Source: Hyphomonadaceae bacterium
Lineage (GTDB): Bacteria; Pseudomonadota; Alphaproteobacteria; Caulobacterales; Hyphomonadaceae
DNA length: 24,000 nucleotides
Assembly: GCA_965263325.1 (NCBI GenBank)
Contig: CBDHGY010000002.1
Span: 2,495,606 to 2,519,605 of the forward strand
Reading direction: 5' to 3'
Shown: positions 5,001 to 8,291 of the stretch, piece by piece
How positions within the stretch are numbered: the stretch's first letter is position 1
Layout of the letters: every line of letters starts with the position of its first letter
Made by a program: the position numbers and the translations under genes
The notes under the pieces: model-generated
The model's database searches: none
Told to the model about the DNA's origin: nothing
What the model saw: the letters and a program-made list of their open reading frames with translations, nothing else

Positions 5001-7892
5001 TCAGCCAAGAGTGCGCAGCTCATCCAGCCGCTCGCGCAGATCCTTGAGGTCGCGGTCGCGGCGGTGATAGCCGGTTTCCTGAACACCCGCGAACGCATCT
5101 TTGTGGTGCGCCTCGGCCGTATCGAGCAGCTGTTTTTCCTCCGCCGTGAGCGGGTCGGTTCGCCAGACCGCTGCCGGGGCAGGGGCGGATTTGCCGCCGA
5201 AGATACGCGCGAGGATGGACCGTTTGGCGGGCTCAGCCCCGGGCGGCAGCGGACGTACCGGTTCCGGCCAGGGATCATCTGGGGCAGGCTGGCCATCGAC
5301 CAGCGGAACAAGCGCCTCAGGCGGCGCGCCGGGAATTTGAGCGAGGCATAGCCGCGCCGATTCCAGGTGCCAGTCGATGAGGAACAGCCCCATGCTGCCG
5401 CGTGAGGCGATATCATGGGTCTCGGCGAGATCGTCGGCAGCGGTTTTGAGGTTCGTTGCATCGCCGCCGCACTCAAAGGCCTGGCGGTGGAATTCAGCCC
5501 GGGCGAGGAGGCCCTGAGCGAGATAGATATCCTGGCTCGCCGCGCGCAGGGCCGTGACCGCCACGTCTAGGCGCGGGCCAGCAGCCCCGGCCGCCTCGGC
5601 GTCGCCATGCGCGGCGCGCAGAGCAAGCGCGCGGCCGTCGGCGAGCGCGAGGGTGCCGCGAGCCAACATTGAAACGCCGGCCACTTGTTTTTGGATTTCA
5701 TCTTCCCAAGCCGCCCGCTCCTGCACCGCCTGCGCTGCGCCGCGCGCCAGCAGGAGGTCGCAATAGAGGTAGCCTTGCAGTGAATAAAGGCGCAGAAACT
5801 GTGGCTCTTGCTTCGCTTGGCGGGCCTCGGCTTCGGCGAACAGGGCGGCGGCGGCTGGCTCTTGCCCGGCCTCGGCGAGGACGTTGGCCAAGGAGGCGCG
5901 GTTCACCATCATCTGGAAGCCATCGCCGGAGCGATCGGCATAGGCGACGGCCTCTTCGCCTGCCTCCACGCCTGCGGCGACCCGGCCGATGGCGCGGCGC
6001 AGTTCTGAGAGATTGGCTCCTTCAATCGCTGCAAATTTCCAATTTCCGGCATCGACGTGCATCTTTATGGTCTCGGCAAGCGGTGCTTCCGCCTCGGTGA
6101 GCCGGCCCAGTGCGCGTAGGGCGAAGGCGGCGAATCCCAGCGCCACGGAGCGGACGGGTGCGGTGAGCGCCTCGTTCGGTGCACCCCAGGGCGGATCGAA
6201 AAAATGCGCCAGTGCGCCGAGATTTGCCGCATAGGCTCCAAGGTGTTTGTTGATGTACGCTTGGTTCCCCCGTCGCACACGCCGGGCGTAGACCTCATAC
6301 CACGCCTCTTGCAGCCGCCCCGCCTTGCAGCCATGATTGATCGCATGGAAAAGTGGTTGCATCTCGGCGAGTGTGTCCGGCAACTCCTTCTCCGGAACGG
6401 CCTGATAGTGCCGGTACAGCCGCTCATGCGCCGCGCGCCAGGAATCCGGGCTGGTCTGCTGGAGGGCTTTGCCGAAATGGCTGCGCACGACGGGGTGGGC
6501 GTCAAGTGCGTCCGGATCGGCTTCATCTTCTGAGCCGAGCAGTTTCAGTTCCCGCAAACGGGATTTGGCGGTTCTGAGGCGCTTATCTCTCTGCGCAAGA
6601 GATGCAGCGTGCCATTCATCTGTCAGCCCCGGGATCGGCTCACCCTCTAGCAGGGCGCGCACCGCCCCGCCATCAGCCGGGCGGTCAAACAAGCCCACGA
6701 TAGAGAGCAACATGCGCTCTACTTCGCCCCGGCCATTGCTTTCGGTTTGCAGCGCTTCGAACCGGGCGATATAGCCCGCCATGATTGCGCCCGCCCGCTT
6801 GGCGAGCCGCGCGGTCTGCTCTGAGGCGGCCAGCTCTTCTTCTGTGTCTATTATATCCTGAAGGCCGAGATGGTCGCGCCGGGCAATGTCACCTGCTTCC
6901 ACCGCGTCGATATACGTGCCGAGCAGGGTCACCGATAGGGCGTGGCCCTGCACTTCCTCGACCGCTTTTTGCATGTCGTCTTTCGCGCCCCAGCAGCCTA
7001 GATGGCGCAACAGGTGCGCGCCCGCGCGGGGGCTGAGACTGTCGAGTGCGCGGGAGCGGACATCGGGCTCGCTGCGGTTTTCAAGCTCCGGCAAGTGCTG
7101 GCGCGAGGTAATGACGACAAGACCCGGATGGCCGAGGGCAAGATCCTGAATCAGGCGCTGGAGGCCTTTGTCCTTCAGGCGGCCCTTGTTCACATCCGGC
7201 AGCGATTGCAGCGGCTCGATCCCGTCCAACAGGAGCAGGGTTCGGGTCTCTTTCAGCCGCGCGGCAAGCAGGCGCGCGCGGGCGATGGCATCGCCTGGCA
7301 GCTCTCCGAGCTCGCCCATGAACCGCAAGGCCTCGATGATGAAGTTTTCAGAGTCAGCGTTGCGGTTCTCGCCGGAACCCTGCGAATAGGCTGACCAGCC
7401 GAGGACTTTCTCGGCGTGGGGGAAATCTGTCTCGGCCAGCCGGTCAACCAGGCGCCGCATCAGCGCAGTTTTGCCCGCTCCGCCAATCGCATGCAGCACG
7501 AGGATGTTGGTCTTGGCGTCGTCGTCCGCCTCCGGCGCGCACGAGGCCCACGCATCCAGCAACAGGCTTTCTTCCGTATCGCGCCCGGTGAGGAATCCAG
7601 ATCCGGAGGTGAGAACAGCGGGGAGGCTGACCCTCTGCTGGGCCAGCAATGCCTCGGTTGGCGGGCGCGGTGCCAGTTTCTTTCGGAGCGCGCGGCGTTC
7701 CTCGGCGTCTGAGACCTGTTTCAGCCGCGTCTCGATCTGAGCAACGAGAACGGCCACGTCCCAGTCGACCCGGTTCAAGCGATAGGTGAGCCCTTGCAGC
7801 TCCTCGGTGAAGTCATCAGGCCCGATATCCTCAAGGCCAACGGGTAACAGTTTCGATTTACCCGACGCATATGTCGCCTCATAGCGGCACAT
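5001..7892 (-). CDS. STAND NTPase (NB-ARC/APAF-1-like P-loop) with C-terminal TPR-like helical repeats; its first ~45 aa look like the C-terminal half of a TIR domain
   Basis: 963-aa ORF. NB-ARC-type motifs, in order:
- Pre-P-loop FLTGRDTEESLLLDAW.
- Walker A HAIGGAGKTAL (GGAGKT is the rc of 7467..7484, checked by hand).
- Walker B TLLLLDGIEP (about 7215..7238).
- RNBS-B-like LVVITSRQ.
- GxP-like VQGHALSVTLLG.
- MHD-like LDAHPVVRSHF.

About 450 aa of Ala/Leu-rich TPR-like repeats follow. The N-terminus (MCRYEATYASGKSKLLPVGLEDIGPDDFTEELQGLTYRLN) matches the distal part of TIR_2-type domains. Confidence 0.85.
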   Translation of the reverse strand: MCRYEATYASGKSKLLPVGLEDIGPDDFTEELQGLTYRLNRVDWDVAVLVAQIETRLKQVSDAEERRALRKKLAPRPPTEALLAQQRVSLPAVLTSGSGFLTGRDTEESLLLDAWASCAPEADDDAKTNILVLHAIGGAGKTALMRRLVDRLAETDFPHAEKVLGWSAYSQGSGENRNADSENFIIEALRFMGELGELPGDAIARARLLAARLKETRTLLLLDGIEPLQSLPDVNKGRLKDKGLQRLIQDLALGHPGLVVITSRQHLPELENRSEPDVRSRALDSLSPRAGAHLLRHLGCWGAKDDMQKAVEEVQGHALSVTLLGTYIDAVEAGDIARRDHLGLQDIIDTEEELAASEQTARLAKRAGAIMAGYIARFEALQTESNGRGEVERMLLSIVGLFDRPADGGAVRALLEGEPIPGLTDEWHAASLAQRDKRLRTAKSRLRELKLLGSEDEADPDALDAHPVVRSHFGKALQQTSPDSWRAAHERLYRHYQAVPEKELPDTLAEMQPLFHAINHGCKAGRLQEAWYEVYARRVRRGNQAYINKHLGAYAANLGALAHFFDPPWGAPNEALTAPVRSVALGFAAFALRALGRLTEAEAPLAETIKMHVDAGNWKFAAIEGANLSELRRAIGRVAAGVEAGEEAVAYADRSGDGFQMMVNRASLANVLAEAGQEPAAAALFAEAEARQAKQEPQFLRLYSLQGYLYCDLLLARGAAQAVQERAAWEDEIQKQVAGVSMLARGTLALADGRALALRAAHGDAEAAGAAGPRLDVAVTALRAASQDIYLAQGLLARAEFHRQAFECGGDATNLKTAADDLAETHDIASRGSMGLFLIDWHLESARLCLAQIPGAPPEALVPLVDGQPAPDDPWPEPVRPLPPGAEPAKRSILARIFGGKSAPAPAAVWRTDPLTAEEKQLLDTAEAHHKDAFAGVQETGYHRRDRDLKDLRERLDELRTLG

Positions 7893-7898
7893 GGGACG

Positions 7899-8156
7899 TC
7901 AGAGCGCCGTTTTCGACCAGAGGGCCACGATGATGGCGGCCTCTTCCATCTTGCGGGTGATGGCACCGTGCCAGTCTGTGCCGGAATCGTCCATCAGCTC
8001 CTTGTCATACCAGACGGACATGTCTGCAGCCTCAAGGGCCGCAGCAAGTTCGGCCGCATAGCCGAACTGCGTTTCGTCTTTATGGGCGTATGATATGAAC
8101 ACGTCGAACGGTTCGATTGTATCCATCTCATCCTTTTGAGAAACACCCTCGGCCAT
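7899..8156 (-). CDS. TIR domain protein fragment (N-terminal half of a TIR domain, ended by an in-frame TGA)
   Basis: The ORF track gives 7899..8234. I prefer the internal ATG at 8154-8156 (MAEGVSQKDEMDTIEPFDVFISYAHKDE...) because AAGGGGA lies about 6 nt upstream. TIR betaA motif: FDVFISYAHKDE. Then VWYDKELMDDSGTDWHGAITRKMEEAAIIVALWSKTAL*. The domain is cut where the S-x-W/M-C-x-x-E helix should follow. Confidence 0.75.
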   Translation of the reverse strand: MAEGVSQKDEMDTIEPFDVFISYAHKDETQFGYAAELAAALEAADMSVWYDKELMDDSGTDWHGAITRKMEEAAIIVALWSKTAL

Positions 8157-8291
8157 GTCCGTCCCCTTGTGTGTCGAGCGCACGATAACAGAGCGGGAAG
8201 GCGAGGCAAGTCTCCCGGCAGGGTCGTCTGGCACCCACCCTCACCACCTTCAGGGCTTGTCGCAACGCGAACCCTCGCTTAAGTCGCAAGG

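Follow-up and report, generated by a model that had tools for sequence, protein, structure and literature searches.

A TIR-STAND-TPR gene of a Hyphomonadaceae bacterium, probably a recent nonsense pseudogene from an Avs-like family of predicted immune sensors

The superfamily of STAND NTPases is said to have been delineated by Leipe et al. in 2004 as proteins that combine a P-loop NTPase with helical and winged-helix domains and with repeats, and antiviral STAND NTPases (Avs) were reportedly described by Gao et al. in 2022. TIR domains are known in Avs systems. In a recent survey of prokaryotic STAND proteins, 589 clades were recognized, 198 of them defence-associated and mostly equipped with TPR-like sensors (PMC13581612; Lee et al., 2026). 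In that survey, a clade is assigned to defence when at least 50% of its members carry an immune effector domain, the neighbourhood criterion asks whether known defence systems are enriched at distances of up to 5 kb (with a null of 0.0153), and defence clades lie intermingled with non-defence ones across the tree of the superfamily (PMC13581612). Another related system, TIR-II of E. coli, consists of TIR and TPR, with an ATPase in approximately 30% of the members, and the TIR active-site residues are needed for its phage defence (PMC11350192). The TIR-NB-TPR architecture is already on record in bacteria, fungi and plants (TNPs) (PMC9806590; PMC12856790), and the bacterial TIR-NB-TPR proteins resemble the plant TNPs in the NB domain only (PMC9806590). 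Here we analyze a gene of this general architecture that is located in a 24,000-nucleotide stretch of DNA from a Hyphomonadaceae bacterium (assembly GCA_965263325.1, contig CBDHGY010000002.1, positions 2,495,606 to 2,519,605 of the forward strand; hereinafter, the window).

We interpret this gene, with moderate confidence, as a member of an NLR-like TIR-STAND-TPR sensor family similar to Avs and to the TIR-containing NLR receptors of plants (TNLs), in which the window copy would be a vertically inherited, recent nonsense pseudogene. The open reading frames (ORFs) and the two codons that are central to this interpretation are as follows (all coordinates are those of the window).

5001..8156, minus strand: the whole interrupted TIR-STAND-TPR gene, 1051 codons, with the ATG at 8154-8156, the in-frame TGA at 7899-7901 and the terminal TGA at 5001-5003
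7902..8156, minus strand: ORF-A, 85 codons, coding for the TIR domain's N-terminal half (betaA to betaC) without the catalytic-type Glu, delimited by translation and the orthologue model
7899-7901, minus strand: in-frame TGA followed by C, standing for the Ser86 codon, identified from the translation and orthologue DNA
5001..7892, minus strand: ORF-B, 963 aa (MCRYE...), starting with an ATG two codons past the TGA, the same as database protein P0001
7878-7880, minus strand: codon of Glu93, the catalytic-type Glu, assigned by family alignment and pairing with E86 of Roq1

The translation of minus-strand positions 8234..5001 gives a single frame with one internal stop only, in agreement with the original prediction of three modules on one strand and in one frame. 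Mechanical ORF listing splits this frame into a 111-codon ORF at 8234..7899, with a GTG start, and a 963-codon ORF at 7892..5001. The joined 1051-aa translation proposed earlier stands, but the extent of the locus, given as 5001-8234, does not: position 8234 is merely the first in-frame GTG of the mechanical ORF, and the true start is likely the ATG at 8154-8156 (MAEGVSQ...), a codon that follows AAGGGGA and is kept in the intact orthologues P0002-P0004. The sole database protein of this genome for the locus is the 963-aa ORF-B (P0001), encoded on a 3.23-Mb contig.

The interruption of the effector that had been noticed in the original prediction is real in the assembled sequence and lies inside the TIR domain. 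Serine occupies the interrupted position (...WSKTAL-S-RPMCRYEATYA...) in all 13 intact homologues whose sequences were read, and a Ser codon is present in all four orthologous loci that were checked at the DNA level (TCC in three and TCG in one), so that the TGA must have arisen through a TCA intermediate or by two changes. The Ser that the stop replaces pairs with S80 of Roq1. The stop is located between strand betaC of the TIR domain and the Glu-bearing helix, seven codons ahead of the catalytic-type Glu, leaving an 85-aa upstream product that contains no active-site residue and a 963-aa downstream ORF that lacks the first half of the TIR fold. Because the effector is split in this manner, the locus is most likely inactive, and the window copy, as judged from its sequence, is most likely a recently formed pseudogene that yields no functional effector. 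Comparison with the syntenic orthologue in L081, at a synonymous divergence (dS) of about 0.5, reveals one stop, no frameshift and three gap columns only, and gives a ratio of nonsynonymous to synonymous rates (dN/dS) of 0.19 overall, with 0.11 for TIR, 0.10 for the NOD (nucleotide-binding oligomerization domain) and 0.30 for the sensor, which is thus the fastest-evolving module, at approximately three times the NOD rate. The low overall ratio, along with the single stop and the intact frame, points to purifying selection during most of the history of the lineage and to a recent lesion, that is, the inactivation looks recent. Interruption may be recurrent in the family, given that at least five, and perhaps six, of 51 related loci have no single ORF over the tblastn match (L022, L051, L052, L056, L073 and possibly L009), with errors in metagenome-assembled genomes (MAGs) as the alternative.

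The domains and motifs encoded in the interrupted gene are the following.

7767..8108, minus strand: TIR domain, aa 17-130, from Pfam, the orthologue model and profile matches
8073-8108, minus strand: TIR motif FDVFISYAHKDE, found by motif search in the translation
8001-8015, minus strand: TIR motif VWYDK, found by the same search
7824-7850, minus strand: TIR motif LLPVGLEDI, found by the same search
7602..7766, minus strand: helical linker between TIR and NTPase, aa 131-185, from the orthologue model (helix 134-161)
7077..7601, minus strand: nucleotide-binding domain of the STAND NTPase, aa 186-360, from Pfam, alignments and Foldseek
7467-7484, minus strand: Walker A motif GGAGKT, found by motif search in the translation
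7362-7400, minus strand: family signature GWSAYSQGSGENR, between Walker A and Walker B, from the family alignment
7221-7238, minus strand: Walker B motif LLLLDG, found by motif search in the translation
7101-7118, minus strand: sensor-1 motif VVITSR, found by motif search in the translation
6453..7076, minus strand: helical and winged-helix domains of the NOD, aa 361-568, from alignments, the model and Foldseek
6930-6947, minus strand: GHALSV, the GxP/GLPL equivalent, from motif search and the family alignment
6486-6503, minus strand: DAHPVV, with the MHD-equivalent His, from motif search and the family alignment
5337..6452, minus strand: TPR-like alpha-solenoid, the presumed sensor, aa 569-940, from the model, Foldseek, profile and dN/dS
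5148..5336, minus strand: Pro-rich linker of lower model confidence, aa 941-1003, from the alignment and the model
5004..5147, minus strand: C-terminal two-helix hairpin, aa 1004-1051, with ETGYHRRD at 5055-5078, from alignments and the model

Pfam and PADLOC-DB v2.0.0 were searched with the joined 1051-aa translation, and Pfam matches were judged by the gathering thresholds of TIR_2 (PF13676; 28 bits), NB-ARC (PF00931; 23.5 bits), NACHT (PF05729; 26.7 bits) and AAA_16 (32.6 bits). The TIR_2-type domain of the original prediction is readily detected (60.6 bits, E=2.7e-16, aa 19-121), with a match that runs across the in-frame stop, and the TIR motifs quoted there could all be located. Residue E93 is invariant in 67 sequences and, in the family-profile alignment, pairs with E86 of Roq1 (SSTWCLEEL), a position that we take to be that of the catalytic glutamate of plant TIR NADases. 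The TIR domain thus appears to carry an NADase-type conserved Glu within a (W/M)Cxx-E helix, and the corresponding activity is predicted; in the window copy, E93 is downstream of the stop and cut off from the first 85 residues of the domain. A single-sequence search of the PDB with the TIR domain stopped short of the catalytic region, which was covered by the family profile.

The NTPase scores below the cut-offs of NACHT (23.4 bits), NB-ARC (12.6 bits, E=0.08) and AAA_16 (17.5 bits), and an NCBIfam scan of the joined protein gave nothing useful. Nevertheless, the NOD is considered real in view of its motif conservation, fold match and sequence-profile match to solved proteins. In the 67 family members, G225, G226, G228, K229, D311, G312, E314, H405, H554 and P555 are invariant, and R352, D552 and A553 show no variation in an alignment of 39 sequences and are conserved to 90% or more in that of 67. 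The features expected of a STAND NTPase are all present, namely Walker A and B, the sensor-1 Arg, helical and winged-helix domains, the conserved His and repeats. A distant family member, P0264, exceeds the thresholds of both NB-ARC (25.6 bits) and NACHT (34.5 bits), which places the family between these two models; by its sequence, the NTPase is a divergent STAND NOD scoring between NACHT, NB-ARC and AAA_16. The original prediction of a complete NB-ARC-style motif set is therefore upheld with respect to the five motifs, all of which are present and conserved, but not with respect to the NB-ARC label, given the sub-threshold score. The family signature GWSAYSQGSG(E/D)NR at 7362-7400, in which W254, S255, Q259 and G260 are invariant, includes residues 259-265 with a predicted local distance difference test (pLDDT) score below 50 and is a conserved, probably flexible loop in the modelled structure.

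Similarly, the approximately 450 aa of TPR-like repeats proposed originally correspond to a C-terminal region of about 480 aa that is all-helical in the AlphaFold2 model of an orthologue, with a TPR-like solenoid of about 370 aa, but the Pfam TPR models (TPR_10) are not significant on the joined protein; more distant family members exceed the TPR_12 cut-off. In the ETGYHRRD hairpin, which follows the Pro-rich linker and is modelled with very high confidence, the G, Y and R residues are nearly invariant across the family; this hairpin may serve to cap the sensor or to keep it autoinhibited.

Structural modelling was performed on the intact orthologue P0002 (84% identical), which stands in for the window protein, and yielded a mean pLDDT of 89.6 and a predicted template modelling score (pTM) of 0.81. 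The best Foldseek matches of this model in the PDB are 6MFV, a TPR-containing STAND protein (1.7e-10), RPP1 (4e-9) and Apaf-1 (1e-7), and further matches include CED-4, MalT (8BOB), Avs3 (8DGC, 1.8e-6), a wheat resistosome and Roq1. The similarity to Apaf-1 and Avs folds, for which a Foldseek comparison had been suggested, is thus borne out with Apaf-1 and Avs3, and no Avs7-Avs21 structure is found among these matches. The family profile matches AfsR among solved proteins (1.9e-12), over both the NOD and the TPRs, and Roq1 (2e-12), in an alignment spanning TIR through the P-loop; it also matches the NADase TIRs of RPP1, RUN1, SARM1 and AbTIR and the TPRs of LGN/PINS.

By analogy with Avs proteins and plant TNLs (PMC13581612; PMC9806590), the solenoid of an intact member would bind a trigger, most probably a phage protein, and this binding would relieve autoinhibition and let the ATP-bound NOD oligomerize. 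Composite NADase sites built around the conserved Glu might then arise from the clustered TIR domains; NAD+ would be destroyed or a nucleotide signal made, and growth would stop (abortive infection). In the window copy, the nonsense mutation of Ser86 to TGA would split the effector between betaC and the Glu helix.

The family to which the window gene belongs is sizeable. A homologue search retrieved 185 homologues, many at E=0, and a pattern scan of species-representative genomes with tblastn confirmation identified 304 loci, the best 80 of which were kept for detailed analysis. These best 80 all come from metagenome-derived assemblies (79 titled MAG), with no cultured isolate among them, and span Alphaproteobacteria, Acidobacteriota, Planctomycetota, Chloroflexota, Bacteroidota, Aminicenantes, Nitrospirota and others; one of the MAGs is labelled archaeal. 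In a profile search of 1.84 billion cluster representatives, 5,130 proteins were found at E<=1e-30, and the best 150 of these align end to end over the NOD and sensor. A TIR domain (TIR_2 or TIR) is present in about 100 of 120 homologues among the matches listed, a fraction above the 50% of members with an effector domain used by Lee et al. (PMC13581612), with the clade here delimited by our own search and not by their tree. In other homologues, the same NOD and sensor are combined with N-terminal HNH, SEFIR, PNP_UDP_1, Metallophos (calcineurin-like phosphoesterase) or protein kinase domains, with TIR plus HATPase_c_4, or with unannotated regions. Neither the window protein nor any of the 18 homologues that were scanned has an output domain for DNA binding (SARP/Trans_reg_C or LuxR HTH), and there is no conserved regulatory operon among the homologues, so the possibility raised in the original prediction that the protein belongs with AfsR/SARP-type regulators finds no support.

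One orthologue, P0005 (1749 aa), encoded in L082, has an unannotated N-terminal extension of about 700 aa before the TIR domain and is the third gene of a triad that also includes a TIR_2 gene (533 aa) and an AAA_5/MoxR-like gene (334 aa). A second triad, which comes after the first, consists of TIR_2 (425 aa), AAA_5 and a 1675-aa Trypsin/DUF4384 protein, and this arrangement (L082 7386-25250), judged by gene content, looks like a repeated conflict-system module. Other orthologues sit among transport and lipid-metabolism genes.

The neighbourhoods of the family members are at most weakly suggestive of defence, and many of the loci have purely housekeeping surroundings. We compared 139 neighbours of 51 loci with 139 genes located 5.5-10 kb away; the near neighbours matched 205 PADLOC models and the far genes 58, a crude comparison because the models are redundant. 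Single defence matches among the near neighbours include SoFic, a DRT reverse transcriptase, mad6, NsnB, bSEFIR and HEC-03B. The 139 genes directly flanking the 51 loci include TIR_2 in four cases and HEAT in three, the remainder being diverse and mostly housekeeping, and no neighbour gene family recurs across these loci. On the joined window protein, PADLOC matches (PDC-S66, SAVED-TIR, bSEFIR and a weak ThsB) are confined to the TIR region. The original prediction had left it for PADLOC to show whether the protein falls into an Avs or bNACHT clade, and no Avs or bNACHT model matches the joined translation.

The genomic context of the window gene is that of a stable resident. The gene order in the window is rnpA, DUF547, VTT/DedA, a pyridine-nucleotide disulfide oxidoreductase, the TIR-STAND gene and a histidine kinase, followed by two unannotated ORFs, a Rieske oxygenase, an alkyl sulfatase, LepA and a Tad/Flp pilus cluster. 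The histidine-kinase gene is divergent from the TIR-STAND gene, whereas the oxidoreductase gene converges with it, with 11 bp (4990-5000) between the stop codons, a spacing that is the same in L081 and L083; no terminator-like site is found in this 11-bp gap. Three intact orthologues (P0002, P0003 and P0004) are 82-84% identical to the window protein, and two of these (P0002 and P0004, from one metagenome) occupy exactly the same slot, with the order histidine kinase, TIR-STAND gene, Pyr_redox, VTT, DUF547; P0003 is encoded on a contig of 1,080,898 bp, and a contig of equal length carries a LepA with 98% identity to that of the window. The orthologues of the flanking genes are 67-91% identical, bracketing the 84% of the TIR-STAND protein, and together with the shared slot this indicates that the gene is a stable resident and not a recent insertion, despite its higher G+C content (62-68% along the gene, 64% overall and 72% at third codon positions (GC3), against 50-59% in the window flanks). 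Thus, comparison of the loci indicates vertical inheritance at a fixed chromosomal slot, where intact copies persist in three related genomes. Recent horizontal insertion, which the 64% G+C had suggested, was rejected given that orthologues share the slot, so that any acquisition predates the divergence of these genomes.

No partner gene such as ThsA, a CBASS gene or a nuclease is found in the window, and none of the ten flanking window genes scanned has a PADLOC match. With no conserved neighbour across the 51 loci, the original descriptions of the locus as self-contained and as lying outside a defence island are both sustained. Among other features of the window, rnpA is located near 1278-1643, and in L083 the order continues as rpmH-rnpA-yidC, and the Tad/Flp pilus cluster at 17267-23405 comprises two TadE-like genes, CpaB/RcpC, a secretin and CpaD. 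The window LepA shows 86-88% identity to those of Hyphomonas and Henriciella, in keeping with a host close to the Hyphomonadaceae. The region upstream of the gene is described by one additional feature.

8157..8291, no strand assigned: divergent intergenic region shared with the histidine-kinase gene, the presumed promoter and 5' untranslated region, from locus comparison

This intergenic region is about 95% identical to that of L081, compared to 84% for the coding sequence, of which the initial 150 nucleotides likewise reach 95%. The divergent promoter region contains, at 8259-8289, a direct repeat (TTGCGAC-N17-TTGCGAC) that might be a candidate regulator-binding site. The 135-nt upstream region folds no better than shuffled sequences (z=0.15), scans with Rfam and for tRNAs and sigma-70 promoters detect nothing in or around the locus, and terminator-like sites at the locus are no more numerous than in shuffled sequence.

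Several observations weigh against the interpretation of the window gene as a recently inactivated member of a defence family. The PADLOC-DB v2.0.0 models of Avs1-5, bNACHT and TIR-NLR do not match its NOD or sensor, the comparison of near and far genes is, as noted, crude, and the function of the family would be assigned by analogy. A position that is fixed across at least four related genomes is not what is usually seen with mobile defence genes, the surroundings of the window gene and of several related loci are housekeeping genes and not defence islands, and tblastn finds no relative on 72,556 annotated plasmids or in 50,697 phage records. As for the inactivation, the TGA, known from one assembly, could be an error, and since UGA-C terminates translation weakly and an ATG is found two codons on, some product might still be made. 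The antiphage role was overstated in the original prediction: we infer it from the architecture of the family and from effector swapping, and the close orthologues are syntenic among housekeeping genes.

Among the alternatives, the one that survives best, although we consider it unlikely, is that the family is not antiphage but rather a chromosomal STAND switch through which a cellular cue would control NAD+ turnover, dormancy or programmed death, with stress, a metabolite, kin or interbacterial conflict as candidate cues. The slot that the gene has stably kept in four genomes, close to rpmH-rnpA-yidC and beside the genes for a histidine kinase and a pyridine-nucleotide oxidoreductase, would be compatible with such a switch, as would the housekeeping contexts of other family members, the interspersed defence and non-defence clades of the STAND tree (PMC13581612) and the fact that the best PDB sequence match for the NOD and TPR regions is a transcription regulator, AfsR. 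However, no examined member has a DNA-binding or other regulatory output domain, and the outputs that are found (TIR, PNP-type phosphorylase, HNH, phosphoesterase and kinase) are typical of conflict systems. Furthermore, the adjacent genes are not kept outside the close orthologues, the phyletic distribution is patchy across phyla, and the sensor evolves faster than the NOD.

With respect to the stop codon itself, it appears improbable that the TGA is a sequencing or assembly error for a true TCA and that the gene is intact and active. In favour of an error, the gene is free of other defects (no frameshift and no second stop, with a dN/dS of 0.19), the TGA allele is present in one assembly only, and every intact homologue read has Ser at this position; yet the orthologues have TCC or TCG and not TCA, so one miscalled base would suffice only if the lineage already had TCA. 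Substitution errors are uncommon in polished Mb-scale assemblies, and roughly 10% of the other family loci also seem interrupted, which makes real inactivation plausible.

We see only a slim chance that the interruption is tolerated or exploited, either by low-level read-through of the UGA, which would hold a toxic full-length TIR protein down to a very small amount, or by reinitiation yielding a 963-aa NOD-TPR protein that, deprived of a functional TIR domain, would act as a decoy, regulator or partner. This possibility draws on the UGA-C stop context, the ATG (MCRYE) two codons after the stop and a hairpin at 7864-7900 (minus strand) that begins within the in-frame TGA (GACGUCCCAUGUGCCGCUAUGAGGCGACAUAUGCGUC), such that the mutated codon supplies paired bases. 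For the 60-nt segment with this hairpin, the folding energy is -20.4 kcal/mol (z=-2.84; one of 200 shuffles as stable), compared to -10.3 kcal/mol in L081 and -14.2 kcal/mol in L082 for the same segment of the intact orthologues. Nevertheless, there is no evident Shine-Dalgarno sequence before the internal ATG, the Met it encodes is ancestral in the subclade and not newly evolved, the loop of the hairpin is not SECIS-like and the homologues have Ser, not Cys, at the stop position, a lone hairpin at z=-2.8 can arise by chance, and no other family member has the same arrangement of stop, ATG and hairpin. The fit of these three elements to an exploited interruption is most likely a coincidence, albeit an unexplained one.

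Selenocysteine recoding at the TGA is unlikely on the same two grounds, Ser instead of Cys in the homologues and a hairpin that does not resemble a SECIS element. Finally, the notion that the UGA-C context, the copy-specific hairpin and the downstream ATG jointly form a regulated translational 'safety catch' on an immune effector, which if true would mean that a trace of toxic full-length TIR-STAND protein is made or that the TIR-crippled 963-aa NOD-TPR protein has a new decoy or regulatory role, strikes us as hardly credible.

The recent pseudogenization of a vertically inherited TIR-STAND-TPR gene thus remains our preferred interpretation. The architecture is not new, and the sizeable family that includes the locus, essentially known from uncultured organisms of the bacterial domain, is not captured by PADLOC v2.0.0 beyond the TIR domain. 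This family abounds in uncultured Alphaproteobacteria, Acidobacteriota, Planctomycetota, Chloroflexota and other phyla, and if it works as proposed here, it would be a further pattern-recognition receptor of the Avs-like sort, its output being a TIR domain (NADase-type). The intact orthologues, such as P0002, rather than the window copy, are the leads for Avs-style trigger finding and for comparison with TNPs; the window copy would exemplify the loss of a toxic sensor through one nonsense mutation just ahead of the catalytic residue. Overall, the locus is a reasonable and unsurprising lead.

Compared to the described systems, the family is similar to Avs in that a single gene encodes the effector at the N-terminus, the STAND NOD and the large TPR-like sensor, with effector swapping and no partner gene, whereas the PADLOC Avs models miss the window protein and the fold match to Avs3 is generic (template modelling (TM) score 0.16-0.18). 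TIR-II also combines TIR and TPR (and ATPase) in one protein, a likeness at the level of domain content; unlike TIR-II, which is found in E. coli, the window family is seen in environmental MAGs only. With Roq1 and RPP1, the family shares the succession of TIR and NOD, the family Glu pairs with Roq1 E86, and RPP1 is the second-best structural match, but plant TNLs have leucine-rich repeat (LRR) sensors, and the window NTPase is below the Pfam NB-ARC threshold. Plant TNPs have the same TIR-NOD-TPR order, and the resemblance is one of domain order alone. For the body of the protein, consisting of the NOD and TPRs, the best matches are AfsR/SARP by profile and 6MFV, along with MalT, by Foldseek; in contrast to AfsR and MalT, which are transcription activators with DNA-binding outputs, the members of the window family have TIR or other enzymatic N-termini. 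Finally, Thoeris ThsB and stand-alone TIR proteins share with the window protein a TIR_2-type domain with a catalytic-type Glu, as reflected in the weak PADLOC match to ThsB over TIR only, whereas, unlike in Thoeris, no ThsA-like gene is present in the window and the TIR domain shares one polypeptide with a NOD and a sensor of its own.

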